The translations under genes and the position numbers were made by a program. From a virus: DNA of 64,000 nucleotides. Shown here in pieces: positions 8,776-44,099 of the stretch (position 1 is its first letter; each line of letters begins with the position of its first letter). The notes below the pieces were generated by a model, which worked only from the letters and a program-made list of their open reading frames with translations, was not told the DNA's origin and did not search any database. The DNA lies in the IMG/VR virus record IMGVR_UViG_3300010938_000009, positions 40,284 to 104,283 of that record; one strand, given 5' to 3'.

Positions 8776-9088
8776 CTAAACTCTTTTTAATCTTAGTACT
8801 AGAAGAATTAGATATTTTAGCTTCTAGCATAAATAACTCTAAATGTCTATGTAATCTTTTAATTTCTTCTTCTCCTAAAATAGTACAATCAAAATGGTTA
8901 TTGTTTGGTTCTAATTTAAATAGGTATTTTATAGCATTTTTCAATCTATCAAAAAATCCTAAGTGTTGATTTAAATATGATTCAATAATTATTTCTTTGT
9001 ATTCTTTGTCTGAAGAAATTCTTAAAATATGCGACATATCGCAATCAATACATTCAAAGTATTCTGGTTTATTATTCTTTGGACTCAT
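8714..9088 (-). CDS. hypothetical protein (CxxC...H)
   Basis: ECIDCDMSH motif; operon position. Confidence 0.5.
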   Translation of the reverse strand: MSPKNNKPEYFECIDCDMSHILRISSDKEYKEIIIESYLNQHLGFFDRLKNAIKYLFKLEPNNNHFDCTILGEEEIKRLHRHLELFMLEAKISNSSSTKIKKSLDEIKSGKNNSAYSNGKISKK

Positions 9089-9881
9089 TTTTTACCTCTA
9101 TTAATTTCTGTAGTTCTACTGGAGTATCGTCTACTATTAAGTTTTCGTCTACCTCTTCTTGTTTATATTCATTTATAACTATATTTGCTAATTTATTTTG
9201 ACCTATTCTAGCTAATAACTTATTAGTTAGGTTGGTCATTGTTTTTTTATCTACGGGTTTACTTAAATGTGTATCTCTAACTTTTCTAAAGTTACCTCGT
9301 TTTTTAGGTTCTATAATTTTATCTGCTAAACCTAAAGTTATACATTCTTTAGCTGTCAAATATAAATCTCTTTGACAAACTTCTTTCCAAAATTCTTTTG
9401 GCATATGGCTATTTTCTGAATAGATTTTGTATAATACTTCCATTAATCTCTTTGACTCATCTGCTTGAATATGCACATCTGTATAATTGCCTTCTATTCC
9501 TTCCCAACCATTATGAACCATAACTGTTGAATGAGGGTACAAATACCTTTCATCGCAAGCCGCCATAACCCAAGTAGCTGCACTCATAATAGCTCCACCG
9601 CCAAAAAACTTAATTTGACAGGTAGAAGCTAGTATAAAATCATGTAGGTATAACATAGCATAAGGATCTCCACCATAAGAATTCATGTGTATTTCTATAG
9701 GTTTCTTAGGGTGATCTGCTATCATCTTACCCATAGCTCTTATAACGTGACTTACAGAATCTATAGTAAAATCTGAATGAGAACTATGACTAGAGTCAAT
9801 AGGTACTCCAAAATAGATTTTTCTATTCTTCTCATCTACGCCATAAACTACAAAGCTTTCTAATTCTATTCTAGTTGACAT
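9072..9881 (-). CDS. clpP: ClpP-like serine protease
   Basis: HMNSYGGD, IMSAA (Ser), MVHN (His), RDLYLTAKECITLGLADKI. Confidence 0.88.
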   Translation of the reverse strand: MSTRIELESFVVYGVDEKNRKIYFGVPIDSSHSSHSDFTIDSVSHVIRAMGKMIADHPKKPIEIHMNSYGGDPYAMLYLHDFILASTCQIKFFGGGAIMSAATWVMAACDERYLYPHSTVMVHNGWEGIEGNYTDVHIQADESKRLMEVLYKIYSENSHMPKEFWKEVCQRDLYLTAKECITLGLADKIIEPKKRGNFRKVRDTHLSKPVDKKTMTNLTNKLLARIGQNKLANIVINEYKQEEVDENLIVDDTPVELQKLIEVKNESKE

Positions 9882-19050: not shown

Positions 19051-19294
19051 TATTAATTTCCTCTAATAAATCAGTTAAAGTAGCTATTGCAGATTTATGG
19101 AATACTACCTTATCTTTTAGAGACATTAATTCGTGAGCTGTTTTAATCTTTTCTTCTGTAGATATTGTACTGTTATTTTTTAGGTTGTCAAGTTTTTTCT
19201 GAATTTTAAGTAAAGAGCTATTACTACCGTTAATTTCTACCTTATGTTCAGATATTTTAGTATTTATAAGTTGTTGTAATTTATTAATCTCCAT
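19037..19294 (-). CDS. hypothetical coiled-coil protein
   Basis: Coupled ORF. Confidence 0.5.
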   Translation of the reverse strand: MEINKLQQLINTKISEHKVEINGSNSSLLKIQKKLDNLKNNSTISTEEKIKTAHELMSLKDKVVFHKSAIATLTDLLEEINNERR

Positions 19295-19544
19295 ATAATT
19301 CCTTAGCTAACCTATTACGTTTAAATACTATAACGTAAGTTGTACTAATAACTGTCATAGGTACTGAATAATGTAAAGGTGTACCATGAGTAGCAACACT
19401 ATAGTTATTATCATAGTCTGTACTTACATTAGGTAGTATTTGTACTACTTCCCAACCTCTTTCTAAACTCTCACTTATACGGTAGTCTATACTAGAAGCT
19501 TTTATATCAGTTAGCGTATAATATTCATACTCTAGTTCTTTCAT
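19284..19544 (-). CDS. DUF4177-like small protein with C-terminal LY tag
   Basis: EYEY...GWEVV...IVFKR; ends RLAKELYGD. Confidence 0.55.
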   Translation of the reverse strand: MKELEYEYYTLTDIKASSIDYRISESLERGWEVVQILPNVSTDYDNNYSVATHGTPLHYSVPMTVISTTYVIVFKRNRLAKELYGD

Positions 19545-20098
19545 AAATATAAACTTTCTAACATTTCGTTATTAAAACCTAAATTGTATTCTTTATTCAA
19601 TAAAAATAATAGTTTATAATATAATTCTGTATATTTAGTTTCTTTTTTGAAGGCATTGGTGGAGCAGGAGGCGGCATGGGCGACATCAGCAGCAGTAAAG
19701 GCGGTATTGGCGATGGCGGCATAAGCGGCATAGGAGGTAGCATAGGCGGCATAGGCGGCGGCATAGGCGGAGTCCATGGTGGTTTCGGTGGTGGTGGCGG
19801 AGGTATAGGCAGTATAAGCGGCGGCATTGGCGGTATTGGCAGCGTTTTTTAAATCTTTTATTTTATCTTTAGTTGGATTTAAAATGTAATTTGCTAATAA
19901 TTCCAAACAAATTTGCCTAGTTTTATAAACTTCAGGATATTTTTCTTTGTTGTAATATTGTTCTAAATTTAAAGCACATTGGTAAGCAAACTTTACTTTT
20001 AATAAATGCGGCAAACCTTTTATATTTAGAAGATTGGTAAGTTTAGTTTTATAGGTTAATTCTTTATTTTGAATAATTAAATTAATTTCAGTTTTCAT
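19541..20098 (-). CDS. protein with GC-rich Ala/Tyr/Thr repeat and C-terminal LY tag
   Basis: AAYAAAYAA-type low-complexity segment; ends EMLESLYL. Confidence 0.65.
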   Translation of the reverse strand: MKTEINLIIQNKELTYKTKLTNLLNIKGLPHLLKVKFAYQCALNLEQYYNKEKYPEVYKTRQICLELLANYILNPTKDKIKDLKNAANTANAAAYTAYTSATTTETTMDSAYAAAYAAYATSYAAYAAIANTAFTAADVAHAASCSTNAFKKETKYTELYYKLLFLLNKEYNLGFNNEMLESLYL

Positions 20099-20718: not shown

Positions 20719-21057
20719 TTATTTAAGATAAAGTAATTTATCCATTTCATTTATCTCAAATTCTATCCCATCTTGGTTTTTAAGTACTTTATCATTTGCG
20801 TCTATAATGAATAAACTGACATGAGCTATAGTATTAAACCCATATGGTTCACTACTTAAGGGACTTATTACATCTAATATATCTTCTTTTCTAATAAGAA
20901 AATAGTGTTCTATAGTTTCAGGCCAATGGTCATCTAGTTTACTCGTAGAAAAGTATTTTCTTTCTACTATCAACTCTTTACCATATTTACTTTGATAATA
21001 TAACCAAGCCTTCTTAAGTCTTAGATAAGCTGTCTTATTTTCCTTGGTTAGTTTCAT
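20719..21057 (-). CDS. hypothetical protein with C-terminal LY tag
   Basis: Ends NEMDKLLYLK. Confidence 0.55.
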   Translation of the reverse strand: MKLTKENKTAYLRLKKAWLYYQSKYGKELIVERKYFSTSKLDDHWPETIEHYFLIRKEDILDVISPLSSEPYGFNTIAHVSLFIIDANDKVLKNQDGIEFEINEMDKLLYLK

Positions 21058-25010: not shown

Positions 25011-26105
25011 TTAAGTCTTTCCTCTAGCCTTTTTAATAATTTCTATAATTTCTTTATCAGCTTGGAACATTTCTCTACAATTTTCTAAGATGTATAACTC
25101 ATGAAGTATGTTAAAACATAACTCTCTTGGAATAGTTTTAACAAAACCGATAATATTTTCTTCTTCTTTTTTAGTTAATTTCTTGTTACTTTTTCTTGAC
25201 TTAAGGTTATCCATTAAGTCATCACAAGTATATTTAAGTAAATCAATTCTACCACCTGTTTCAGAATTAGAATACTTTTCAAGTCTTTCTTTAAAGTCTG
25301 GAAAGTTTTTGATAATATCATTAGCTGAAATAGGTTTATCTTTATTTTTAAGTGAAGACATAAAAGCCACTGTAGCTTCATGTCCTATTAGACCATAACA
25401 TAGTTCTTGTAATAAAGGTAGTGGAGTTTTAGCGGCGATTAGTCTGTTAACGCTGTCCCAACTACGTCTACTAGGTTTAACTTCTTCTAATGTAAATTCT
25501 TCTAGTTTACTTTGAAGTAATTCAGGTTGATCTACAATAAAGTTAATTACTTCTTTAGAAAAGTTAGTGTTTTTAGCATACTCTATCCACTCTTGTACTG
25601 ATGGGGATAGTTTAATATGACAAAACCTATCCATTAAAGCTTTATCTGACACATCTGTTACTATATAATCTTCTGTATTTGGATTTTGGGCGGCGATAAC
25701 ATATACATTTTCAGGTAATGTAATAGTATGCATTTTTCTATCCAACACTAGTTGAAATACCGCTTGCAATACGTCTCTTCTAGCTCTGTTAAATTCATCT
25801 AGAAAAATAATACCATATTTCTTAGGGTTTTTATTAGCCCAATCAATTAGCTCTGTTAGCCATTTTGGAGTCATAAAAACTGTAGTTGTTTTATTGCCTG
25901 ACTTATCTGTACCAAAATCAGGTAGACCTAATAAATCTCCTACATCTTGTGTACCTAGTCTTAGGTCAACAAATTTATGTCCACCTTCCTCTGCAAACTG
26001 CTTTACAGCTTGTGATTTACCTATTCCATGATGTCCAATTACCAATGGCGCAATATTTGACTGAAACAAATAAGGTAATGCCTCTTTGAATGTACTAATA
26101 AACAT
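25011..26105 (-). CDS. MoxR-like AAA+ ATPase
   Basis: GHHGIGKS, FLDEFNRA, AAQNP, ALMDRF, PSRRSW; adjacent to the VWA gene. Confidence 0.88.
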   Translation of the reverse strand: MFISTFKEALPYLFQSNIAPLVIGHHGIGKSQAVKQFAEEGGHKFVDLRLGTQDVGDLLGLPDFGTDKSGNKTTTVFMTPKWLTELIDWANKNPKKYGIIFLDEFNRARRDVLQAVFQLVLDRKMHTITLPENVYVIAAQNPNTEDYIVTDVSDKALMDRFCHIKLSPSVQEWIEYAKNTNFSKEVINFIVDQPELLQSKLEEFTLEEVKPSRRSWDSVNRLIAAKTPLPLLQELCYGLIGHEATVAFMSSLKNKDKPISANDIIKNFPDFKERLEKYSNSETGGRIDLLKYTCDDLMDNLKSRKSNKKLTKKEEENIIGFVKTIPRELCFNILHELYILENCREMFQADKEIIEIIKKARGKT

Positions 26106-26173: not shown

Positions 26174-27526
26174 CTATTTTCCTATTAATTTAATTAAAGT
26201 TTTACTTAATTTTTTAATTGTTGATTTTTTAAAAACTATTTTATTTTCAAAATTAAAGTGATTTAAACCTACATATTCTTGGTCATTAAAAATATAATGT
26301 TCTACCGATAGTTTATCATTGATTTTATATTTTTTCAAAACTTTTATTTGTTCTTGCTCCATTTTAGCCTTTCTTAAAAAATTATTATTTGTTCATAATT
26401 TATAGGTAATACTATAAAACCTTCTATAATCTGATTATTATAGATTATTCCATAAGTTTCATTTATATAATATTTTCTACATTTAGTTTTACCTATAACA
26501 AATAAAGGTTTAATTTCTGCAATAGGAGGTATTTCTGAATCTTTTAAAAACCTTCTTTTACTTAGATCTGTGTTATTAATATATTCTTCAAATTTAACTT
26601 TTTTCTTTTTTATGAAAAATTCTTTTATCGTTTTTAGCATTTTTAATCTCTTCATTTTTATTCCTTGATTTAAAATAATCTTCTTTTTCTTTACGTTTCA
26701 TTTCCTGATAATACTTCATAACTTTTTCATCAGCTTTACCTCTTTTAAGAGTTTCTTCCACCTCTTTTATAGCCAGTGCCGCCATTTGTTTGCTAGGATA
26801 TAATCCACAAATAGTACCTTTATTATCTACTAAAACGTACCATTTTCCTGTAGCTTTTAAATTATACTCCGGATATTCTGTACTCCACTCACCTCTTTCT
26901 TGAATAACTAATTCTAATTTACTCATATAACTCCTTTTATAAGTATAGATTTTTTACTAAATCTTTATTATCTACTCTAACGCATAACTGTTCTATTTTA
27001 GTTTCATAATATCTTGCTAACTCTTTTGTTTTTACTTTAACTAGATCATAAAGATAACCTTCTTGTTTACCTCTAATTGGTAATGTTACATCTATTACTT
27101 GTAAGTAACAATTTTTATCTGATCTATAAAACATATCTCCAACTTTATATTTAGGTTTTCTTTTTTTAATATTCATATTTCTAATCCTTCCTGTTCTAAA
27201 GTTAACATTAGATTATCTAATTGATCTTTTAATTTTATATATTCATCATGTTCAGCTTCAATCATTTGATATTCTATTTCTTCAAGTATATTAAATAATT
27301 CTATTTCTTTCATATATACCTTTCAATGTATTAACTGACTTTTAATATATTGTTCATATATCATTTTTAATTGTTCATCATCCATATTTAATAAGTCTTC
27401 TAAAGCTTTATTTTGTGCGTATTCTAATAAATCTTCTTTATCCCAAAATTCCATATTTTCTATCAATGTTTCAATCATATCATTTTTTTGTTTGTCTGTT
27501 AGTTTCATTGTTTGCCTTTGGTGCAA
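26174..27526 (-). CDS. cluster of small hypothetical ORFs (26174-26362, 26374-26655, 26594-26926, 26937-27176, 27323-27526)
   Basis: Co-oriented short ORFs; 26937-27176 has YKVGD and ends DLVKNLYL. Confidence 0.5.
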
Positions 27527-28196
27527 GTTTTATATTAAATATTGTTTTAGCTAATTTTCCTGTATATATAGCCGTAGCCTGACTAGTACCTTCCCAACAT
27601 ACATTATAAAAACAAGATTTACCTATTTCATAGGTATGAACAATTATACCGTAATTACTTTTTTCATGTAAGGTATTATTATTTTTTAAATTACCTACTA
27701 CAATAAGATTTTTAATATTAGTGTAACAAGCAGGATATACGTCACAAGTTTTTGTTGTAAGGTTTTTACTATCATTTCCAGCACTTACTACAACTTTTAT
27801 ACCTAAATCACTAGCTTTTGATATAACAAAATATTCTTTAGTTATAAATTTCTTTCCAGATAATGATATATTAAGTAAATCTACTTTATTTATAATAGCT
27901 TTATCTACTGCTTTGTAAACTGTGCTAACGTCTTTTATATTATATTTATATATAACCAAACAATAATCTATTGTACCAAGATTTTCTACAATTGTCAAAG
28001 CTATATTTGTGCCATGTCCGTTAAAATCTCTACCAATCCCTTTTTTATTAGTTTCAAAGTCATAATGCCCTTTAGAGCAAAGTTTTATATTGCCTAATTT
28101 AGTTAAATCTAATCCAGTGTCAATTATCCCAATTTTTACTTGGGCGGCATAAACCAAATTTATGTTCAATATAAGTAATATTAATAATTTTAACAT
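27480..28196 (-). CDS. S8 subtilisin-like peptidase with signal peptide
   Basis: Catalytic triad motifs IIDTG, GHGT, GTSQAT; oxyanion SAGND. Confidence 0.88.
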   Translation of the reverse strand: MLKLLILLILNINLVYAAQVKIGIIDTGLDLTKLGNIKLCSKGHYDFETNKKGIGRDFNGHGTNIALTIVENLGTIDYCLVIYKYNIKDVSTVYKAVDKAIINKVDLLNISLSGKKFITKEYFVISKASDLGIKVVVSAGNDSKNLTTKTCDVYPACYTNIKNLIVVGNLKNNNTLHEKSNYGIIVHTYEIGKSCFYNVCWEGTSQATAIYTGKLAKTIFNIKLAPKANNETNRQTKK

Positions 28197-28420
28197 TATT
28201 TATCCTTTCTAACGTCTTTATCATCTTTATATAATAAAGTAGCTGTTTCTAAGTCAACTTTAGAACAAAACCTATTAACAAAACTAGCTGTTAAGTGTAA
28301 ACATTCGTCATTTTCTTCTTTTCTAACAAATACTACGTCATTTAAGGTATTTATAACAAAATATATCTCTTTAGTTCCTACGTCTATTATATAGTCGTTC
28401 TTTTTAAATTTACACGCCAT
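28196..28420 (-). CDS. small SH3-like protein with LY tag
   Basis: FKKND; ETATLLYKD near C-terminus. Confidence 0.5.
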   Translation of the reverse strand: MACKFKKNDYIIDVGTKEIYFVINTLNDVVFVRKEENDECLHLTASFVNRFCSKVDLETATLLYKDDKDVRKDK

Positions 28421-29030
28421 AAATTAATTCCAACTCTTCGTTTTTATAAGAATCTATAACTTTTTGAATTTCATTATTTAAAGTATCTTTTTCTTTTATT
28501 AAACTGTTTAATTCTTCTTGGTAAGAGTTAACTTTAGTTTTTAATTCATTTGTTTGATTATTATAAGCAACTATTTTAGCTTTAAAAAGATCACAAGCTT
28601 GTTGATGACTCGCAATCGCATCATCAATAGCTTTGAAATGATTTGTTCTAATACCTTCTTTTTTAAGGTTTTTTAATAATATTATATTACTGCTTTTATT
28701 ATAATATTTCTCAGGGTTAAAATAAGTAATTTTAACTAATTTTTCAGGATTAAATATAATTTCAACAGTAGGACTAACAGAAATATAAAATTTAGATAGT
28801 TTTTCAACTTTAACTTTATCATTTGTTCTACTTTTTATAGAATTTAATTCCAAATTAGCAGTTTCTAAACTATTATAAACTTTAACTTTATAAAGATTAG
28901 ATTTCTGTGGAGTCATAAACATTACTTTAGTACCATAACCTTTGTATAATAAAGTTTTGCCTTGACTCTTTTTAGTTATAACATAATAGTTATTAAAATC
29001 ATAATAGTTCACTTCAAATTTAAAACTCAT
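28410..29030 (-). CDS. hypothetical coiled-coil protein with terminal IY tag
   Basis: Ends NEELELIYGV. Confidence 0.55.
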   Translation of the reverse strand: MSFKFEVNYYDFNNYYVITKKSQGKTLLYKGYGTKVMFMTPQKSNLYKVKVYNSLETANLELNSIKSRTNDKVKVEKLSKFYISVSPTVEIIFNPEKLVKITYFNPEKYYNKSSNIILLKNLKKEGIRTNHFKAIDDAIASHQQACDLFKAKIVAYNNQTNELKTKVNSYQEELNSLIKEKDTLNNEIQKVIDSYKNEELELIYGV

Positions 29031-30997: not shown

Positions 30998-31501
30998 TTA
31001 TAATTCTGTTACACTATTAAGATATACAGTAACATAACTACCTGAAATTAGTTGCTGTATTTCTAACTCTACTACTAACTTATTAGAACTATTAAAACTA
31101 AATTTAAACTTATGCCTATAAGTACCTGTATTTACTAATTGTACTCCATTACTAGCTTGACCACTAATATTACCTACGAATACACTAGCATTACTCCCTG
31201 TTAATACAGCTAATGGAGTAATTACAACATTATCAAGTATATCTAAATCAACTAATGCGCCAATAGTTATAGTAGCTAAACTATTATTACTATTAGGATA
31301 AACTAATGAATTACTAATAGTAGCTATTTGATTATTGTAGTCGTTATATAATTCAACTATACCTCCATTAGGCATATAGTATCTACCTTCAAAGTCTTCA
31401 CTAGATAATACTTCAATAGTCCTTTCAGTATCTTTTCCTTTGGTTTCGACTATATTGTCTTTACAACCTATTAATATGAATAATACTAATAATTTAAACA
31501 T
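30998..31501 (-). CDS. putative lipoprotein
   Basis: MFKLLVLFILIGC lipobox-like signal, then a beta-rich domain. Confidence 0.55.
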   Translation of the reverse strand: MFKLLVLFILIGCKDNIVETKGKDTERTIEVLSSEDFEGRYYMPNGGIVELYNDYNNQIATISNSLVYPNSNNSLATITIGALVDLDILDNVVITPLAVLTGSNASVFVGNISGQASNGVQLVNTGTYRHKFKFSFNSSNKLVVELEIQQLISGSYVTVYLNSVTEL

Positions 31502-32431: not shown

Positions 32432-35127
32432 TTACCTATCCTGCAATAAATCCCAATAATATTCTGCTTGACAGGCTTGATTTTCATACCATTTTTCATA
32501 TAATTCTTGCTGATAATTCTCATAGATATATTCTAAATCTTCATCACTTATATCTTTATTTGTATCTACATAATAGGCGCAACCGATTTGTATATCGTTC
32601 TCATATTTACCGTAAATACTTTCAATTTCTATTTCTTGTCCTAATTTATTTTTAACTAGCATAAAACCTACCTTTCATTATTTAACTTTACTTATTTTGC
32701 CGTCGCCTAATTCTATTACTTCTAATTCCTTAGTTTGATCACATTCTATAGTAATACTTCCTACTCCCTCAACTTTAACTATTCCAGTAACTTCATCATA
32801 ACCCAAGTATTTAAATACTGTATTTTTAGTTACAATAACTTTATCGCCTACTTTAAACTTAGTCATTGTGATAACCCTAATTTCTTTTTAGTTCTATTTA
32901 ATTGAGCTAATTCTAAATTAGGATAACATTCTATATTAACTACAATATAGCCTAATCTTTTAAGTTTGTTTACTATAATGTTTAGTTCACAGTTTAAATA
33001 TATGTTATATTCTTCTAGTCCTTTGTCATCTATTATAGTTACTAAGTTAAACATAATTAAGTCCTTTCATGTTATACTATAACCTATCTATAACCTTATT
33101 ATAGCTTAATTTTTGATTATTGCAATAGTTATTTTAACCTATATAACTCTATTAGTTCATTAGCTCTAATCCTAGTTTTATCTATATCTAGGTTATTAGC
33201 TAATAGTTCTAGTTCAATAGACTTGCTAATTTGAGGTAAATCAGTCATTTTAAATTGTTTGTAATTACCTACCTCTTTAAATAGGTCATTTACTAGTTTA
33301 TCTATTTTCTTTTTAGAAATTTTAACCATAAAATTACCTTTCTAGGTTATTTAAACCCATTAATAATTTCGATTACTTAGGCTAAGAGCTTGTAATTACT
33401 TGGGCGGCACAGTAATTTCAATAGCTTAACCCTCAATTTTCCCTGTTTTTAAACATTTACTTAACCAAGCTATGAAAATATTAGCGTCAACTTTACCACC
33501 TACATTATAAGTATTGACTCCACTAGCTCTAAACTCGGCTACACTAGGATAATTACTATCATATAGATTAGTACATTTCCAGTCATATACTGTAAAGGTG
33601 TTGCCTAAAGAGTCACTAAAAACCCATTCTCCACTAACTTTGTAGTCATCTCCATCAATTGGCTGGCCAAACAATTCAGCCATTTTATTGAAATCTAAAT
33701 CAATATGTCCTCTCAAGTTAGTTCCATTTACATCAGCGTTATTATTTAACTTAAACATAAAACAATCCTTTCCAAAAAGCTAATATTAAATTTGCCTTTC
33801 CTAATGTAACTGTCAATTATAATCTACGTCAATAATGACTTATGTCAAAACGCTACCTATTTTAACAAAATTAATAACTTAAACTTGGGCGGCATAAATT
33901 AAGTCTTTACCATATACTTACTTTACAAATACTGTAATAACCTTATTAGTATCATTTAATTGCATACAAACTCCTATTTAGTTTAATAGTACCTATTGTA
34001 TGTATTAAACCTATTCAAATAAGTACCTATTCTATACTATTCAAGTAACTGTTTATGATTACTAGAATTACTAGCAGTAATTGTAATAAGTGTAATGATT
34101 ACTTGTAGTTGTAGTGGTATTTGTAGTAATAACAAGTACTTAGCTCATCCACATTTTTCATGCCTACCCTCCATTACCACTAATAATACCTGTAATTACA
34201 ACAACTTACACCAATTACACTACAATTACTTGCGATATAACTTAGTATAACCCTTATAACTATTATTAGTTGTACTATAACGTGTACTAGTTATACTTAT
34301 AGATAGGCTATAGCTAGTTATACTATAACCTACCCTAGGAGTACAATTATTTGTTAGTCCTTTTACACCAACGCAAGTAAACTCCTAAAGTCTCTGTTTT
34401 AAATAATTGACCTGTAAATTGCTGACAAGCTACAATAAACCTAGCTGTATCAATTACTCCATTAATTTTTATGTAATTAGAATTTGATACTTTATCTTCT
34501 TTCACTAGTTTGTAGAAATCTAATACCTGATCTTTAATAGTTCTATTACTCACTTTACTCATATACGTTCTCCTTAGTTATTAGTGGCGCATTTTTACGC
34601 CACTAGGTTTAATTTAAGTTTAGTTTAAGTCTAAAGTTATACCTTCCATATACTCTAATTCATTACTATTTGAGTGATTAATTACATATACTACGTTCTT
34701 ACGCTTAATAACCCTATAGCCGAAAGGTTGTAAGGCTAAGTTAAAACACTTCCTAGTATGGGATGAAGACTCCCACCCATTAGCTAAGAGCGTGATTTTC
34801 TTAGTACTGTAGTCTACCGTTACTATATTAGTATAATACAGTCTATGTACAACCTTGTCTTTGTATGGCGTGATACTGTAACCTTTTGGCATAAATACCT
34901 CCTTATTTTTTAAGTTTAACCTTACTATCTAACTTGTCAACTAGTCCAGTAACTTGATTTAATTGTGATTCTATTAGTTTAGTTTGTTCTAATACTTGTA
35001 GAGTCTTTAAATCACTTATAAGTCTTATTAAATCACTTATAGCCTTATTAGTAATATTAGTTTTGCCTAGTCTTGCATCTACCACTAGTTGCGCTATTAT
35101 TTGAGCTATTTTAAATTCTATAGTCAT
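32432..35127 (-). CDS. cluster of small early hypothetical ORFs (32432-32662, 32678-32866, 32863-33054, 33129-33329, 33426-33758, 34347-34562, 34620-34892, 34903-35127)
   Basis: Short ORFs with strong AGGA/GGAG SDs nearest the divergent promoter region. Confidence 0.55.
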
Positions 35128-35273
35128 ATATACCTCTATTCCTTGGCTTATAATTACTTAGTTCTATATAATACTGTATAACCTAAATCTAATAACTTCT
35201 CTACTGACTTCATATTCACTTTACCTACTAGTATAATTACTTTACTTGTCATACTCACCTTCCTTCTAATATA

Positions 35274-35302
35274 ACTATAACCTACTAGTGTTATAGAGTC
35301 AA
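35274..35302 (-). promoter_or_regulatory. leftward early promoter
   Basis: Minus strand TTGACT-17 nt-TATAGT. Confidence 0.65.
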
Positions 35303-35911
35303 CTATAATCGTAATAGTCAATAGTTACACAGTACCTAGTATAAGTACTTGTAATTACAGTACTTCCTTAATATAACTTAATTCTAGCTCATTTATAATA
35401 TAACCTAGTCTATAACATAGGCTAGTTATATAATCAGTATGAATATAACTTGACTCAATGTTACTCATTCTAATTAAATCAATTATTGTATAACACTTAA
35501 TATAGTCTATCATATAATCCCCTTGTTAGTAGTAACTATCTTATAATGATCTTATAACCAGCATTATAGAAGCTATCATAAGCTTGACTAGTAATGCTAC
35601 TTACTATTACTACCTTAGTTACTTTGTTTATTTTAATTATGTTTGTCATACTTAGACTATAGCAAGTGATGTACCAAGTATAAGTATTTGTAATTACTGG
35701 AGTGGTAGTAGTAGTAATTGTATAACTTGTAGTCGTTATAGTATAACCTATTGATACTATTCAATGTTATATTATAGTCAGTGTATAGAAGTTCTATAGT
35801 AATAATAACATAGGTTATAAGTGACACTTGTAGTTATAGTATTACAAGAAGGGGTATACGGTGTAAAAAATGACACACCCCACACCCAGGGGTACTCAAG
35901 GTCTCTTTTTT

Positions 35912-35967
35912 AAATTTTAAAAAAATTAAAAACGGGGCTTGACGATAGTCAAGAAATAGATTACACT
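35912..35967 (+). promoter_or_regulatory. rightward early promoter 1 with UP element
   Basis: AAATTTTAAAAAAATTAAAAA, then TTGACG(35939)-17 nt-TACACT(35962). Confidence 0.7.
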
Positions 35968-35974
35968 CTTCAAC

Positions 35975-36088
35975 ATGACTCAATATAATCCTGGTGATAT
36001 CCTAGAACTAACACTACAACAACATACAGGACTACCTACTCTAGTACCAGAAGCTAATAAAGTACTAATAAAACAGCTATACTTCTAA
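35975..36088 (+). CDS. 37-aa leaderless ORF with LY tag (not in ORF track)
   Basis: MTQYNPGDILELTLQQHTGLPTLVPEANKVLIKQLYF*; ATG 8 nt after the -10 box. Confidence 0.55.
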   Translation: MTQYNPGDILELTLQQHTGLPTLVPEANKVLIKQLYF

Positions 36089-36330
36089 TAGCTTATTAGA
36101 GCCTCTACAATCAATTATAATACCCTTTCTACTACTAACTCTAGTCCTACTACTTACAATCGATCTAATAGCCTTCTAGGCTCTTTAAACTTACATTATA
36201 AGTACGGGGGATTAGCCGCCCCTTCTAAACTGCTAATAACTAGCATTTTCGGAAGTTAAATTGCTGTAAGTTATTGTAATTACGTAAGGGGTAGCCCTAA
36301 TAACTAGCGTTTTTAGCTAGTTACTGGTTA

Positions 36331-36386
36331 AAATTTTAAAAAAATTAAAAAAATAGCTTTACAAGTCCTATAAAGTAAGCTACAAT
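36331..36386 (+). promoter_or_regulatory. rightward early promoter 2 with the same UP element
   Basis: Same 21-nt AT tract, then TTTACA(36358)-17 nt-TACAAT(36381). Confidence 0.7.
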
Positions 36387-36509
36387 AAGCCCTATAGCTA
36401 ATATTAAAACAATTATAGGGAGTTTGAAGTAGGGCCTTGCTACCGGACTTAGCTAATGCCTTAAAAAACGGATTAATAGTACCTTATAATTAAATAACTA
36501 AGGAGATTT

Positions 36510-39500
36510 ATGAAAAATAAGAAAGAGCCTATATTTGATAATTTTAAAATAGAACTTGGGCCTGAAATTGATAGAAGTAGTTGGAATATTACATTAAATA
36601 GCGATTCAGATTTAGGTGTATTACCTTTTAAAGAAAGAATACAACAACAAATCAAACATCATAAAGATAGCCTAGAAAAAGCTGAAGAATGCTTAAAACA
36701 ACTAGAAGCTGCTAAATATAAGGAAGGGGACGTACTTTTACATAAAACTAAAGGTAAGGTATTTGTAATTGAGGTTTATATAGATGAATATATTAAACCT
36801 GGAATTTTATATAAAGTTAGCTGTCCAGGGTTTGACAGGTTTCTAACTTACCAAGAAGAAGAATTATTACCTTTAAATGAACTTACACAAGGGTTATATG
36901 ACTCTAATTAGAACTGTTAAGGACTTAAGGGGCCTCGGCACCGAAGTCCTTAAAAAGGAATTAGAGGCTTATATAGGAATTGAACTTTATAGTAAAACTG
37001 AAAGAAAAAGCTTTATTATTGACCAAATTATTTTTAATTTAGATTTAGCTCCAAATCAATCCTATTCTGATTACAGAGCTATTGGAACTATATTTGTTTC
37101 TCCTGTCTACTTAGATAGGTTTTATATAGAAAGAGTTACTACAGTTTCAGCTAATGTACTACATTTAGAGACTTTTGATACGTTTATAGAACAAAACCTT
37201 AAACCCATGCTAGATAACTTAGTACTTGACTTTAAAACTGAGTATGTTAAACTAGATACTGAAATGGCTAAAATACTATACAAAAAGGACTAATAATGGC
37301 TATTAATAAATACAAATACTTAGAAGAAGCTGTAGAACAACTTAAACCTATTATAGCTCCTTATGTAGGTAAAACAATGTTTTGTAGAAAATATAGAGTA
37401 TTATTACAAATAGTAGAACCTAAATTAACGATATATTATAATAACCCTTATATACTTTATGCAGTTGATAATATTGATAATCTTGAAAATATTTTTGCAA
37501 TAAGTAAGTTTTACAAAGATTTTGAAGGCTATTATAAGCCTAACATAGATTTTAAGTATATTCAACATACTGTTATAACTAATATATTAAATATAGACTT
37601 TAACGACCCATTAGCTAAAGCCTTATATTCAAGGATTTAATAATGAAAAATGAAGTATTCCAAATTATTCAGACTTGTATTCAACCTTATAGTAAACAAC
37701 TAGTTTATAGTTTATACCACCGTAAGTTTGTTTCTTGCACTTTTACTACTGGTTATAACATACGTCCGCCAGCTACCGAAGAATCAGATTACAGCTATTT
37801 ACTAACTATTACAGCTAGTTGTACTGATAATAACGCTATTTTAATACCTATACATCTAGATCTTATACTTAATAGTTTAACTCCTTTAGCAGAGGTACAA
37901 GCTAAGGTACAAACTGCCCTAGACCAACAATTTGCTATTATACCTGCAACAGAACTTAGTGAGACTCTATATGGCTTCGATAACGAATAATTACGTAATT
38001 TTATATAATAAAAGGACTAAGGAGTTTTTTGAGCAAGATTGTGATAGTCCTATTATTAAAGCTATTAAAAATATTGATAATTTAAGAGATTTTCTACACG
38101 GTTTAACTTTAGCTGAATTTAATAACTATAATATAGATAGCGTAACAGGGGATGCTTTTTATCAAATTTGGCACGATAAAGGAATTACAAGTATAAGTGT
38201 AGAAGACGTTAGAAATAATAACTGGGTAGTTTTACCTAACACAGAATTAACTAAGAGTTTATATGGCCTCTAACCTAAAATTTAAGGTCGGCGACATCAT
38301 TTGTAATAAAAAATATCCAGGACTACTACTAGAAATAATAAATATTAACTGTTACCTAGACGGTTGTTATTATACAGTAAGGTTATTAAAAGAACTTTTT
38401 GAAGTACCTTTTAGACAAGAACAAGCAGAAACAGAGTATGAATTAGTTGCTAATGAAGAAGCTATAACCCTAAAGTTATTATATGATAAGTAATTATAAA
38501 GTAGGTAGTTACTTATTAGATAATAAGAAGGAACTATTTGTTATAACTAGTATTAATATTATAAACGATACTATTAGTACTGTAGGTATTACTAGGATTA
38601 AAGTGCCTACTTATAATACTACAGTTGTTAGTATAGAGGGTAGTATTGTAAGTTTAACTAGTAGAAACTATTTTCAAGTAGTACCAGAACAGGATGTAGA
38701 GTTAACGGAATTATTGTATAAATGAGGTCTTAATGGACTTTTCATGTTTACCACCATTAAGCCCAGGATGGGATCACCTCTGTTTTGAGCAGAAGGTTTA
38801 CATTATACATATTTCAGCCCATAATAGGAGTTTATGAATAGAGTATCAAAATATATTAATACTACAAATAAAACGATTATAGAGCTAAATAACTATGTTT
38901 TACAAAGCTTTAGAGAAAAAGTTCAAGCTTTAAGTTTGAATTCTGACCCTTACCTTTTAAAAAACTACTTATCTCAACAAATTAAGGTTTTTAAACCTCA
39001 ATCTAATTGTAAGGAATATTATTCTATTGAACAATTATTGAATGATTTCAAAGAGTTAACTCCAGAAGAGGAAGCTATAGCAACTTTATTATATGAATAA
39101 ACCTCAATATTATACCTATGAAGGTACTTTATTTAAATTAATACATTTTAACAGTTTAAATTCTTGTTGCCTTATGTTAGGCTTAAATAAAAATAGCCTT
39201 AAAACCTACCCTATAGAGTATATAGAAACTTATTTTGAGCCTTTAACTAATTACGATGAAAGTATGATAGACTTACTTTATGGTAAAAAGGACGCTGCGG
39301 AAGCCGTGCATGATCTATGTCATCAAATTCTAACAAAACACTTAAAAATCTAGAAGGAAAGTGGTTCAAACCTATTTTTGGACAGTTAATATATAAGGGC
39401 GAAAATACTAAAATTTACATTTCTGACCCTTTTCTTATCAAACGCCTTATAAGAACTAATCCTTACCGAGGTGACGAGTTCTTAGTAAAAACGCTAAATC

Positions 39501-40901
39501 CCAATTACCCCGAAGTTATAATAGTATTAGATATGATGCTATTAGAACCTTATGAACCTACCGAATTAGAAAAACTACTCTATTCTTAATCTTATGCTAA
39601 CTTTCCTTAAAATATTTTATAATACAGGTCTAGGTATATTTTACGCTGTAAATAAACTTATTTCTATTAAAAATTACTTTAAATTTCAAATACTTAGGTT
39701 ATTTTATTATATATTAATAAAAACTAAGGGTAAAGCTTTTCCTGAATTTAAAACTGGAGAATATTGTTTTTATTTAGATAGAGATAAAAAAGAACTTATT
39801 CCTGTTGAAATATTAGATTTACGTTGGGAATATAATGAAAACTATGAAATCTACGTTAAAGGTAATTATAAAAATCTTATAGGTTACTATATAAAAGATT
39901 TAAAAATAACTAATAATAGTCAATTATGGGGTAAATTAGCCTACCCTTACGACTTATTAAAAATAAACGACGAAGAACTAATAGATATACTAAAAACTCT
40001 GTATAAAAGGGATTAATGTTTAAAAAAGGCGATTTCATTCACCCTATAGAAGAACAGGTAGAAGCTTTAATAACTACGGGCAAAAGTCAGTATATTCTAC
40101 TTTTCGGGCCTAAAAATATATTTATAGTTCACAGTTTTAATAAATGGCACTTGATATTTCAGTATTTAGATGATAAAACGACTTATATTGAAGGTTTATA
40201 TACTAAGTTCAAACTAGTAGAAGACCCAACTCAATTAGAACTACTACAGGCGTTATATGGACAAGATTACTAAAAGATACGGAGAATACCAAGGCACTAT
40301 TTACGAAATCGTAGGTTACGGTTATTGTAGATTTTGTACTCCTGGTAATGAAAGTCTTTACGAAGGAAATGTTCTGTGTTTTCAACTAAAACCTCTTATT
40401 AGAACTAACCCTAAATCTATTACTACAACTACTACTTATCATGTAAGTGGTGATGCTGTTAGTCATACTGCTACTTATTATCCTAATAGTTCTTTCTACG
40501 TAGAAGAGACTTCAGTTACTGAAATAGAAGACCCTTCTACTATAGAGGCTCTTAACGTATTATATAACCTATAATAACTCTAATAACAAGTATAACCTTT
40601 TATGCATATACAACTAATGTATGAAATGATGGAAGCTGTGTACGATACCTACAAAGATGTAGAAAATACTAGCTTACTAAAGTTTCCTATAAATACTACT
40701 AATACTATAAAAGATTTTAATATAGACGATCATGCTATATGTTGTTATAGTATAGGTAATTACGTTATAGTAGGTTATAATGTAAATAAGTTAGTAGTTC
40801 GTAATATAGAGAAAGGTTATCTTGTTTGCATTTCTCCACGTTTTTTAAAAGTGGTTGAGGACAAAACAGAGCTTTTTAAAGCTATTTACGGTAAAAAGTA
40901 A
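36510..40901 (+). CDS. array of 14 small ORFs, each with a C-terminal xLY motif (36510, 36898, 37296, 37643, 37971, 38263, 38483, 38834, 39093, 39317, 39594, 40016, 40257, 40602)
   Basis: Translationally coupled 76-140 aa ORFs; several have a (F/Y)KxGD SH3/KOW-like start; all carry E/D-L-x-x-x-L-Y near the C-terminus. Confidence 0.75.
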
Positions 40902-41547
40902 CTATTTTTAAAAATATTTGGGTTTACTTTGTATATACTTTTGAGGGTATAGTGAGAAGTCTTTTTTGATTATGCGTGGATATTAATTAATGTTAGTTTC
41001 TTTAAACAATTAATTATACCGTTAAATTAAAAAACAAGTGATTTTAGTTAGTTATATTAAACAAATCACTTAATAAACTAATTTAACTAAAGCTCTACAA
41101 AAGAGCTTTAGTAGTACAGTTACTAACTAGTTACTAATATTATAAAGTTACTAGTTAATAAAACAGTCATAATAATATGACTCAAAAAAATTACTTATAA
41201 GTACAATTACTTAATAGTAAATACTACAGTAATATAACATAAAGATTGAATTTAAGTTATAATTGTAATAATAAGTAAAAGCTTAGTTTTTGATTTTACA
41301 TAAGTAGAGAATACAGCCTCTCACCCTTATATAGAGGGCTTTGAATTTCCGAACTGATAAGATTAATTATTAAGTTCCTATTACCTGAATTTTTTAATAT
41401 GAACGGATATTAAAGGTTTTGACGGTAATACGGCCTCCGTTACTAGAGAATTCCCCGATTCTCTTTATAAGGTTAAGTTTTTCCTAATAAAAAACTATAT
41501 ATATATCGGGGGCTTTATTAGCCCCCTTATTATACCGAGGAGTAAAT

Positions 41548-41790
41548 ATGGTAAATAAGAAGGTAAAATATACCTGTAAAAATTGCAATTGGCAAACTTC
41601 TATAAGAGTTGAATGGGCTGATTTACGCCCAAAAAGATGTATGAACCGTAAATGCAATATTAGTTTTCTAAAAAACCCAGACTCCTTATTAATTGAGTTA
41701 CCAGAAGAAATAAAGATAGCTCCTGAAAAGAAGACTAAAAAGTCTAAAAAACAAGAAGAGCTACAAAAAGAAGGTGAACCTAATGAGTAG
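41548..41790 (+). CDS. Zn-ribbon protein
   Basis: CKNC...CMNRKC; GAGGAG SD. Confidence 0.6.
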   Translation: MVNKKVKYTCKNCNWQTSIRVEWADLRPKRCMNRKCNISFLKNPDSLLIELPEEIKIAPEKKTKKSKKQEELQKEGEPNE

Positions 41791-41897
41791 TGGAGTTATT
41801 AATAAAGAAGAAGCTGCTAAGTTAGTGAATAATAAAATAACTAATAAATTAGTTGAAACAATTAAAACTATAGTAAATTTAGGGAATAGAAAGAAGA

Positions 41898-42494
41898 ATG
41901 CAAGACGACGAAAAAAAGCCAGAAGATAAGACTGATAGACAAATTTCTATGAAAGAGAAGGCTAAAAGAGGCGGCCAAGTTTCTGTTATTAAAATGGAAG
42001 CTAAAAGAGCTTTAAAAGAATACAGCAACCCTGATTCTAAATGGGACCTTATACAAGAGTTATACCAAGAAATACAAGCTCTTTATATTAGTGTAAATCC
42101 AGACCAACCTATGCCGACTGTCCCAAAATTGAGACAACATTTAATAGATGAAATAAAATTAAGATATGAAGATGAACCAGAATTAAGAGATTTATTACTA
42201 CAATGCCTTCCTAGCACTGACCGATATATTAGAGCTTGGTATAAAAAAGAAGGTTGGATGGATGCAGTTTGGGATAAAGTTAGAGTTAAAGGTTTATTTA
42301 CAGAAAGTAAAAGATCTCAAGTTATAGAAGCTTTAAGAAAAAGAGCTATAGAAAAAGATACTGCAGCAGCTAAAATATGGTTACAACTTTCTGGAGATTT
42401 AGTAGAAAATAACCCTATAGCAGCTTCAGATAAAGCTCAAGATTTTTATAGAGAAATTAATAAAATTTTACATAGTAAAAAAGGTAACGAATAA
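41898..42494 (+). CDS. putative terminase small subunit
   Basis: Directly upstream of TerL; helical, ALRKRAIEKDTAAAKIWLQ motif. Confidence 0.55.
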   Translation: MQDDEKKPEDKTDRQISMKEKAKRGGQVSVIKMEAKRALKEYSNPDSKWDLIQELYQEIQALYISVNPDQPMPTVPKLRQHLIDEIKLRYEDEPELRDLLLQCLPSTDRYIRAWYKKEGWMDAVWDKVRVKGLFTESKRSQVIEALRKRAIEKDTAAAKIWLQLSGDLVENNPIAASDKAQDFYREINKILHSKKGNE

Positions 42495-42497
42495 TTA

Positions 42498-44099
42498 ATG
42501 CAAGTTCAATATAATACAGAAGGTAAACCTTTAAGAATAAATGAACTCGACATAGAAGGTTTAGCTAAATGGTTATATGAAAATAAAGTTAGAACGACTC
42601 AAGGTAAATTATATCAACCATTACATAAGGGACATTTAGAAGTTTTAAAAGATCCAGCTAGATTCAAAGTTTTAGCTTGCGGTAGAAGATGGGGGAAAAC
42701 TTTATTAACTTCTTTAATGGCTTTAGCTGTTCTGTTTCAAATGAACAGAAGAGTTTGGATTATTGGCCCAGATTATTCTTTGTGTGAAAAGGTTTTTAGA
42801 GAACTTTATAGCATTTTAGTATTACAATTGAAGATTATAGTTCCTGGAAAAAAAGGACGTGCTCGGAACCAAAAAGGGGATTATTACTTAGAAACTCCTT
42901 GGGGAAGCATATTAGAAGCTAAATCAATGGAGAATCCTGACAGTTTAGCAGGAGAAGCGAACGACCTAATTATTATAGATGAAGCAGCTCTTACAACTAA
43001 TTTAGAAAATATATGGGTGCAAATGCTAAATCCGACGTTAATGGATAAAGAAGGTTCAGCAATTTTTATTTCTACACCACGAGGTAAAAATAATTTTTAT
43101 AAACTATTTTTATTTGGTGAAAAAGGTAAACGACAAAGAGAGGGTAAACTTAAAATAACCATAGATCCAGAAACAGGCATTAATAACGATATGACTGAAT
43201 GGAGTAGTTTTCAGAGAACTAGTTACGATAACCCTTTGTTAGCAGCTACGCCAGAAAAATCTAAAAGTGAAATTGATGCTGCTTATAGACGCTCTATAAT
43301 GTCTGGTAAAATAGTCATGTTTAAACAAGAATACTTAGCAGATTTTGAATCAGTTTCTGACAGTTGTTTTCCAGGTTTTAACGTAGAAGCTACTGAAAAA
43401 ATACAATATCCTAATGTAATAGATTATAATTGGCACCCTGATGAAGGCCCAATTTACTCAGCTTGCGATCATAACTTTGCTAAACCAGCAAGTACTATAT
43501 TCGCTCAAGTAAATCAATTTGGAGACGTAGTAATATTTGATGAATATTTTACACCACATACAACCTCCTACATGCAAGCCCAACAAATAGTAGACAAAGA
43601 AAGAGAACTTACAAGAAGAGCTATAAAAATTTGGGACGACGAAGCACAATTATTAAAAAATAGAAGACATATAAAATTTGAAGAAATAATAGCAGATATT
43701 TCAGGAGATCAAGTACAACTACATGGTAGAGCAGCTTGGGATGATTTTGAAGCAGTTTTAGGTAGAAGACCAAAAGGTTTAGCTCAAAATAGAGAAACAG
43801 GTTGTAATATGATAAGACTTTGGTTACAATTTCCAAAGTTTGATCAAAAAGGACAGCCAGTATTCGACAAAAACAACGAACAAGAAACTTACCCTAAATT
43901 ATTTGTTTCTAGTAATTGTACTAATTTAATTTACGCTTTAAGTACTGCTAAGTTCAAAAAAGGAAACGGCGGCAACTTAAAAGAAGATTATGAAGAAACT
44001 CCAGAAGGTTACGAAGGTTTAATTGATGCTTTACGTTATTTAATAGTATACTTATTTCACAATAAGGGTAATTACGTAGAAGTTTACAAAGGATTTTAA
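42498..44099 (+). CDS. terL: terminase large subunit
   Basis: ACGRRWGKT Walker A, IIIDEAA Walker B, ISTPRG, QEYLADF, nuclease DHNF...DALRY. Confidence 0.93.
   Translation: MQVQYNTEGKPLRINELDIEGLAKWLYENKVRTTQGKLYQPLHKGHLEVLKDPARFKVLACGRRWGKTLLTSLMALAVLFQMNRRVWIIGPDYSLCEKVFRELYSILVLQLKIIVPGKKGRARNQKGDYYLETPWGSILEAKSMENPDSLAGEANDLIIIDEAALTTNLENIWVQMLNPTLMDKEGSAIFISTPRGKNNFYKLFLFGEKGKRQREGKLKITIDPETGINNDMTEWSSFQRTSYDNPLLAATPEKSKSEIDAAYRRSIMSGKIVMFKQEYLADFESVSDSCFPGFNVEATEKIQYPNVIDYNWHPDEGPIYSACDHNFAKPASTIFAQVNQFGDVVIFDEYFTPHTTSYMQAQQIVDKERELTRRAIKIWDDEAQLLKNRRHIKFEEIIADISGDQVQLHGRAAWDDFEAVLGRRPKGLAQNRETGCNMIRLWLQFPKFDQKGQPVFDKNNEQETYPKLFVSSNCTNLIYALSTAKFKKGNGGNLKEDYEETPEGYEGLIDALRYLIVYLFHNKGNYVEVYKGF

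Follow-up and report, generated by a model that had tools for sequence, protein, structure and literature searches.

A C-terminal helix ending in Leu-Tyr on many small proteins of an environmental phage clade, and its possible role in docking

Why should fifteen neighbouring phage genes, the bodies of whose products have no detectable similarity, all end in much the same few residues? The question is raised by a stretch of 64,000 nucleotides (nt), hereafter the window, which comprises bases 40284-104283 of the 104,283-bp record of an uncultured phage, with terminal repeats and ~30% G+C (IMG/VR record IMGVR_UViG_3300010938_000009). An initial annotation, made from the sequence alone, described fifteen successive open reading frames (ORFs) on the plus strand (35975-40901) whose products finish in a short 'LY' tag, and interpreted the tag as a modular address for one partner. 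We find that this motif is real, C-terminal, selected as a peptide, modular, clade-wide and flavoured by the genome in which it occurs. That it is a portable docking helix is, in our judgement, an evenly balanced proposition, which is weighed below against a structural role and weaker alternatives.

All fifteen endings are present in the sequence as they had been quoted (Table 1). With the tag Tyr numbered 0, residues before it negative and those after it positive, the array endings align as [T/D/N]-E-[L/M]-x-K-x-[L/I]-Y, the next residue often being G. Between one and five residues follow the Tyr in 14 of the 15 ORFs, and 23 follow it in ORF 10. Visibly higher in G+C than the DNA around it, this last stretch (39282-39353) extends over the start of ORF 11. 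The description of the ORFs as consecutive needs one amendment: all fifteen are tagged, but an untagged ORF of 34 amino acids (aa), which may or may not be a real gene, is located between ORFs 8 and 9 (38733-38837).

Leu or Ile followed by Tyr within the last 6 residues was found in 14 of the 15 array ORFs, as compared to 15 of the 152 other ORFs in the genome (Fisher p=1.2e-11); the latter 15 include several true tags on the other arm. Among shuffled array proteins (2000 trials) the number of such endings was 1.7 on average and 8 at the most. Both tests exclude chance. A scoring matrix trained on the tags of related phages only was run over the 30,784 positions of the genome's proteins; the window tags ranked first genome-wide, and matches were 16-fold denser in the last 12 residues than elsewhere in the proteins.

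The tag draws on all six codons for Leu and both for Tyr, at close to genome frequencies, and for E(-6), L(-5), L(-1) and Y(0) the codons chosen show little departure from genome usage. Since codon use at the conserved residues is like that of the genome, selection acts on the peptide, which bears out the earlier claim of conservation at the peptide level. Tags and gene starts are nevertheless interlocked at many junctions: the Tyr codon TAT and the next G form the ATG of the following gene at 6 of the 14 array junctions and in 40 of 127 tagged genes across four genomes. These start codons may explain, in part, why G, D or E is favoured after the tag Tyr. ORF 3 probably starts at one of them (ATG at 36898, made of the ORF 2 Tyr codon plus G) rather than at 36877. 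In one relative, G003, TAT is mildly enriched at the tag Tyr; the junction ...A-I-Y-E-stop / M-S-K-F-K-V-G was seen many times in that genome.

Carriers and flavours across the clade

The initial annotation had placed the tag in the array. The array does hold it, but tags are also present elsewhere: at least seven minus-strand genes in the window are tagged, with more in the part of the genome outside it, and the whole genome has about 23 carriers. Two mini reading frames on the minus strand (genome positions 28013-28080 and 31225-31350) encode A-[K/R]-T-T-E-L-G-K-[I/L]-L-Y, with synonymous differences between them. Both are separated from a start codon by a stop or a change of frame at an A-run; a frameshift, a sequencing error or decayed genes are possible.

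The best known relatives of the phage's TerL are only ~27% identical, and a blastn search with the array against 50,697 phage records gave no match. TerL homologues at 65-77% identity are abundant in metagenomes; a scan of IMG/VR with the single TerL protein found no relatives, whereas an alignment-based scan found them. The sources of the clade are groundwater, sediment and saline-lake metagenomes. Every relative in this range of TerL identity that was fetched with enough upstream sequence has a small-ORF array in the same place, with endings of the form hydrophobic-x-x-hydrophobic-L-[Y/F/W]-G plus 0 to ~20 residues, and whole relative records have carriers on both arms. By a permissive count, carriers number 27 among 122 small ORFs in G001 and 49 among 116 in G003; the estimate for G003 is about 45. 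Between one fifth and two fifths of small genes in the phage and its relatives encode carriers.

For only three of the 15 array proteins could any homologue be found in these relatives, yet the array stands in the same place in each of them: bodies are replaced, but the ending is kept. Alone among the array members, ORF 15 has clear orthologues (L004, L005, L006, L084, L089 and L107); ORF 2 has a homologue in L005. One relative's carrier contains a DUF6011 domain. A gene of ~100-140 aa, conserved at the array/zinc-ribbon position in nearly all relatives, is absent from the whole genome studied here.

Across the clade the invariant part of the tag consists of L/I(-1) and an aromatic residue (Y, rarely F or W). 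The remainder differs by genome: T-E-L/M in this genome and in L108, L087 and L094; D-I in L098; W at -5 in L008; A-[I/L]-K-[V/I] in G002, L005 and L089; and G-E-L-x-E-A-I-Y-E in G003. When pairs with any body similarity were left out, similarity over positions -8 to -2 was higher within genomes than between them (z=9.6; control segments taken from these proteins gave 0.2-3.8). In the ORF 15 orthogroup, E-L at -6/-5 occurs only in this genome, in agreement with the genome's consensus. Other orthogroups retain tag features of their own, so that the flavour is partly genomic and partly genealogical.

More distant phages have endings of another kind. In G004 (TerL 40% identical), small-ORF arrays on both arms end x-[Y/H]-M-[K/R]-[K/R]-x-K-K, not L-Y-G (e.g., L169:11166-13194), and no orthologues were found between its carriers and those of the LYG clade. 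In G005 (TerL 48% identical), ~19 tiny aromatic-rich ORFs of 42-108 aa (e.g., L180:2237-5712 and L181:17694-18394) have V-L-W-[I/L] or V-L-F-F as their very last residues, with GGAG right after the stop; they may be real genes or may reflect a signal located where genes end.

A possible docking helix or barrel cap

The bodies to which the ending is attached deserve attention. Profile comparisons of the 15 array proteins with the tag removed detected no significant mutual similarity, in agreement with the earlier description of the bodies as dissimilar, and neither these proteins nor 10 other carriers had a significant Pfam or PHROG match. The (F/Y)KxGD start that had been ascribed to about half of the array was seen, initially or internally, in some 6-7 of the 15. 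Small beta proteins with an (F/Y)KxGD-like first strand make up about half of these 15, and of all carriers roughly half are SH3-like barrels of the Mind-bomb SH3-repeat type. Non-barrel carriers include a 185-aa helical protein, a 206-aa coiled-coil-like ORFan (a search with it found only itself), ORF 9 and a 66-aa helical protein.

When a profile of the barrel-plus-tag family was run against 1.84 billion representative proteins, 323 were matched, with ORF 8 turning up as P0196; a word-index search with the profile returned 6 proteins only. Small viral proteins match the whole profile (positions 1-71), tag included. Among the 150 matches listed, seven small homologues and many multi-repeat proteins have matches that end at about position 63, without the tag, and the multi-domain proteins contain 2-8 barrel repeats. 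Pfam SH3_15, the Mind-bomb SH3 repeat, was identified in 7 of 10 scanned matches; domains of this type are peptide-binding. Of the 15 array proteins, only ORFs 8 and 13 could be aligned with the barrel-plus-tag family, and none has a direct Pfam match. The ending is modular in that the same helix is present on unlike bodies, the same barrel exists with and without the helix, and both linker and tail are variable.

Our preferred reading is that of a portable docking helix, for and against which we see roughly equal chances. The shared ending would form a two-turn amphipathic helix of consensus T-E-L-x-K-x-L-Y-G, with T, S or D as N-cap followed by E, L or M at -5, a hydrophobic residue at -2, L or I at -1, the aromatic residue and often a Gly C-cap; it would usually come after a strand and a Pro/Asp turn, with a free tail of 0-23 residues extending beyond it. 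Such a helix would mark a large, fast-turnover set of small accessory proteins in this phage clade, most of them single SH3-like barrels of the Mind-bomb repeat type and some with bodies of quite another kind. We infer that one groove on a single shared partner receives its hydrophobic face and Tyr; this would couple the many small proteins, plus whatever their variable bodies bind, to one machine. In barrel carriers the unbound helix probably rests on the protein's own barrel. We prefer docking to a structural cap because the motif is real and clade-wide, is modular, and in barrel carriers is probably packed against the barrel of the free protein.

The modular part of the original address-tag proposal is upheld by the unlike bodies and the untagged barrel homologues, whereas the partners that it named (ClpP, MoxR-VWA, capsid loading, host hubs) are guesses. 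Several points weigh against docking, the first being that no partner was found. Between 25 and 45 different proteins competing for one site would need an abundant partner. The T/S-E start and the G end are ordinary helix-capping signals. Orthology across genomes is demonstrable for few carriers only, and the genome flavour could originate from lineage-specific paralogue expansion or gene conversion, not from co-evolution with a reader. The best model available, of a G003 paralogue, has the helix confidently placed beside the barrel; ribosomal L24/KOW proteins and the MRG15 chromo barrel carry a C-terminal helix in that place, and the helix could simply cap the barrel.

The last point leads to the main alternative, according to which all or nearly all carriers derive from one tandem-duplicated barrel-plus-helix protein, the helix is its best-kept core element without any reader, and tagged proteins that lack a barrel arose as fusions or as rearranged paralogues. 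We regard this as a tenable but rather unlikely explanation. In G003, ~25 clear paralogues have the layout KFKVGD...WL-P-x-G-E-L-x-E-A-I-Y, their identity to the aligned reference member being 22-49%; about half of the window's 15 carriers are barrel-like, and the array junctions are tandem and often overlapping. The AlphaFold (AF2) model of a G003 paralogue (predicted local distance difference test, pLDDT, 82; predicted template modelling score, pTM, 0.71) consists of an SH3-like barrel and then the tag helix, at residues 68-74 with pLDDT 84-90. Its best structural match is the Mind-bomb Mib repeat 4xi6 (Z 7.5, root-mean-square deviation 2.2 over 60 residues); ribosomal L24/KOW gave Z 7.0-7.1, with some alignments spanning the helix, and the MRG15 chromo barrel Z 5.7, all of them middling values for a common fold. 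In the Atlas model of ORF 7, SH3-like family matches extend over residues 3-67 only, leaving the tag outside. The AF2 model of ORF 8 is poor (pLDDT 60, with a tag helix at 75-79 and the tag region at 35-40) and bears neither way on the role of the helix.

Several observations argue against a cap as the general explanation. Barrel homologues lacking the helix are frequent, and hence it is dispensable to the barrel; helical and coiled-coil ORFans terminate in it as well; and the body-only profile comparisons are empty for most carriers. Moreover, if the helix did no more than cap, one would expect its hydrophobic pattern to be conserved, but not that L-Y should be invariant in hundreds of proteins amid the turnover of all else. 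The single fold with a buried helix that the initial annotation had set against its own proposal is found in part: half of the carriers share the SH3-like fold, but the helix is present on non-barrel bodies as well. For the barrel subset, the model leaves room for a structural role of the helix.

It is also conceivable, though improbable, that the carriers bind each other, through bundling of their helices or by insertion of one carrier's helix into the barrel groove of another, to give mixed oligomers. The model sets the helix against the barrel, so a groove probably exists, and a genome-wide flavour is what would be expected if the carriers were themselves the readers. However, each barrel carrier's own helix fills its groove, the benefit of such oligomers is not evident, and this idea has no direct support.

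Genome context and candidate partners

Genes run leftward from ~35.9 kb and rightward beyond it. The leftward arm comprises genes of replication and nucleotide metabolism, encoding RecA, family A polymerase, ligase, a DnaB-like helicase, ERF, RNR, ThyX and dUTPase, together with a subtilase and a sigma-like protein. The rightward arm comprises terminase, portal, head and tail genes and runs past the record ends. A promoter-like element with an A-rich stretch precedes ORF 1 and ORF 2, and these are its only two copies in the genome. The ATG of ORF 1 is located 7 nt past the first -10 box, and its mRNA might be leaderless. A 27-nt repeat in the divergent control region, present in two good copies and a weaker one, may be an operator. 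Between ORF 15 and the zinc-ribbon gene, terS and terL there is an AT-rich non-coding gap of 650 nt that contains hairpins, among them a terminator-like one; Rfam gave no match over 34000-42600. The consensus matches suggest that the array is an early unit read by the host polymerase, and the sigma-70-like promoters and the hairpin gap before terS fit the early expression that had been proposed.

This arrangement bears on the idea that the carriers are packed into the head via the tag and ejected into the next host, which we consider very doubtful. The array is always located directly upstream of packaging and head genes, and encapsulin cargo peptides are likewise C-terminal. There is also a precedent in the T4 internal proteins, diverse and defence-countering, which have only the capsid targeting sequence (CTS) in common (PMC3012670). 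Against this, the carriers are too many, both here and in G003 (about 45), they occur on both arms and amid replication genes, the array has promoters of its own and is set off from terS by the gap, and there is no recognisable protease site at which the tag would be cut off. Least credible of all is a nucleotide-level signal, with the 3' ends kept as the next gene's translation-initiation region, start codon or recombination junction and the peptide as a by-product: the shared TAT-plus-G start codons and the TAT excess in G003 speak for it, but some two thirds of the tags lack an ATG of this kind (TAC, TTT, TTC, TGG, or TAT without G), F and W stand in for the tag Y, the array's last gene and isolated genes are tagged too, and the codon data, with all six Leu codons present near genome frequencies, largely refute it.

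If the ending is a docking helix, the candidate readers are, in rough order, a phage proteolytic or AAA+ machine (two ClpP, MoxR and the VWA/metallopeptidase), the carriers' barrels, TerL by mimicry of the TerS tail, and a host hub. The pair of ClpP paralogues is also present in G001. No Clp unfoldase gene was seen in the phage, in which MoxR is the only unfoldase-type gene. The MoxR-VWA pair is conserved in G001 and G003 and is located among carriers in all three genomes, an adjacency that means little because carriers are so frequent there. ClpP itself contains an internal match (ESKRLMEVLYK), which lies inside the ClpP fold and is probably due to chance.

Taken further, the docking helix would be the constant handle of a phage-encoded library of small binders, made of SH3-like barrels and other bodies, that deliver their catch (e.g., host defence or housekeeping proteins) to a phage machine. 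The most attractive candidates for this machine would be ClpP1/ClpP2 with a host unfoldase, or the MoxR-VWA-metallopeptidase, and the outcome would be targeted degradation with exchangeable adaptors. We attach little probability to this extension.

Were the ending an address for one partner, a clade of ~100-120-kb environmental phages would organise a fifth to two fifths of its small genes by one docking code; dozens of ORFans per genome would belong to a common pathway, and the tag would provide a handle for hub pull-downs and a transplantable tethering peptide. Were it only a structural cap, the carriers would still constitute a very large, fast-evolving SH3_15-like phage family outside current domain libraries. 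Tagged and untagged forms of the same fold are documented here for a phage terminal tag.

Table 1 Coordinates of array ORFs, other tagged genes and neighbouring features. Positions are those of the window unless another record is named; in endings, the hyphen follows the last residue of the tag.
Feature	Position	Strand	Length (aa)	Ending or sequence	Remarks
ORF 1	35975..36088	+	37	KVLIKQLY-F	minimal carrier, possibly a remnant
ORF 2	36510..36911	+	133	NELTQGLY-DSN	C-terminal half barrel-like (YKEGD...)
ORF 3	36877..37293	+		TEMAKILY-KKD	
ORF 4	37296..37640	+	114	DPLAKALY-SRI	
ORF 5	37643..37990	+	115	TELSETLY-GFDNE	non-barrel-like body
ORF 6	37971..38273	+	100	TELTKSLY-GL	ATG at 37971 within ORF 5 Tyr-Gly codons
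ORF 7	38263..38493	+	76	AITLKLLY-DK	SH3-like barrel
ORF 8	38483..38725	+	80	VELTELLY-K	SH3-like barrel
ORF 9	38834..39100	+	88	EAIATLLY-E	body mostly helical, judged from sequence
ORF 10	39093..39353	+	86	ESMIDLLY, continuing LLYGKK...	23 residues after Tyr
ORF 11	39317..39589	+	90	TELEKLLY-S	
ORF 12	39594..40016	+	140	IDILKTLY-KRD	hydrophobic N-terminus and barrel-like part (FKTGE...)
ORF 13	40016..40273	+	85	LELLQALY-GQDY	SH3-like barrel
ORF 14	40257..40574	+	105	IEALNVLY-NL	
ORF 15	40602..40901	+	99	TELFKAIY-GKK	
Array start codons from Tyr TAT plus G	36898, 37971, 38263, 38483, 39093, 40257	+			
Tagged gene	19284..19544	-	86	RLAKELY-GD	
Tagged gene	19541..20098	-	185	NEMLESLY-L	helical, with low-complexity stretch
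Tagged gene	20719..21057	-	112	NEMDKLLY-LK	
Tagged gene	26937..27176	-	79	KDLVKNLY-L	barrel-like (KYKVGD...)
Tagged gene	28196..28420	-	74	ETATLLY	barrel-like; 10-residue charged tail after tag
Tagged ORFan	28410..29030	-	206	NEELELIY-GV	tag extends long coiled-coil-like stretch
Weaker tag match	33129..33329	-	66	ANELIELY-RLK	helical
ClpP paralogue	9072-9881	-	269		longer than usual
ClpP paralogue	L003:18839-19720	-	294		longer than usual
DUF2201 VWA-like protein	22611-25007	-			putative metallopeptidase domain; split by intein with LAGLIDADG endonuclease
MoxR-type AAA_5 ATPase	25011-26105	-			adjoins DUF2201 gene
27-nt repeat	35332-35358, 35671-35697, 36267-36303			GTACC(T/A)AGTATAAGTA(C/T)TTGTAATTAC	
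Promoter-like element, copy 1	35909..35967	+		A-rich stretch, TTGACG, 17 nt, TACACT	before ORF 1
Promoter-like element, copy 2	36328..36386	+		same A-rich stretch, TTTACA, 17 nt, TACAAT	before ORF 2
Non-coding gap	40902-41547				AT-rich
Terminator-like hairpin	41508-41526				
Conserved protein at terS position	41898..42494	+	198	...REINKILHSKKGNE	just upstream of TerL; tail tag-like, His for Tyr
TerL N-terminus	42498-42600			D-I-E-G-L-A-K-W-L-Y-E	tag-like, residues 18-28

Comparison with known systems

Literature searches returned no description of such a tag and nothing relevant on the roles of phage ClpP. Short C-terminal motifs on unrelated proteins are familiar from clamp-binding/PIP-box peptides and from the acidic tails of T7 gp2.5 and gp4, by which unrelated proteins dock on one hub. 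Unlike the users of clamps and PIP boxes, the carriers are not recognisable DNA enzymes. The beta-clamp/PIP-box consensus is QL[SD]LF or Qxx[LIM]xx[FY][FY]; we rejected this assignment, as the tag contains no Gln and has K/E at -3 where a hydrophobic residue is needed. No clamp gene was identified among ~40 larger phage proteins scanned with Pfam; a clamp could also come from the host.

Two other terminal motifs were rejected as well. The HbYX motif (hydrophobic-Tyr-X-COOH) demands a one-residue tail, which only 4 of the 15 array proteins have; their tails are of 1-5 and 23 residues, and reach ~20 in the relatives. The membrane helix of MinD/FtsA type resembles the tag in being C-terminal, amphipathic by prediction and hydrophobic at -5, -2, -1 and 0, but the tag has no net basic character: counted together with their tails, 11 of the 15 are neutral or acidic, the lowest charge being -4.

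The tethering peptide of the adaptor SspB is LRVVK-like, a sequence different from that of the tag, and the phage has no unfoldase gene besides MoxR. With AAA+ adaptors such as SspB, in which a C-terminal peptide tethers the adaptor to ClpX (bioRxiv 10.1101/2022.11.06.515074), the carriers share a small binding domain, a linker and a short C-terminal peptide, and the phage encodes two ClpP.

The comparison with T4 concerns the CTS. This peptide is cut off by the prohead protease. T4-type internal proteins are diverse, fast-changing small proteins with one common CTS, which is read by one partner (PMC3012670), and the phage studied here likewise has one short terminal peptide common to otherwise unrelated small proteins. 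In contrast, the T4 peptide is N-terminal and binds the scaffolding core, whereas here a C-terminal helix has a free tail in all carriers. The genes are also many more, are located on both arms and are probably early.

In P22 and lambda the C-terminus of TerS binds the N-terminus of TerL (PMC9611059). The protein at the terS position, for which Pfam and PHROG give no confirmation as TerS, has across the clade a tail R-E-I-N-K-I-L-H-S-K-K. By eye its pattern (E, hydrophobic, x, K, hydrophobic, L, aromatic-like, G/S, K, K) is tag-like; its tag-matrix score is not significant, for which reason mimicry of the TerS tail is kept as a lead only. It differs from the tag in having His for Tyr, and Asn at a position where the relatives' 75 matrix tags never have Asn.

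In their fold, the barrel carriers are like the MRG15 chromo barrel, L24/KOW and SH3_15. What sets them apart from SH3_15 repeats and from several small homologues is the helix itself, with its invariant L-Y, which is also found on other folds.

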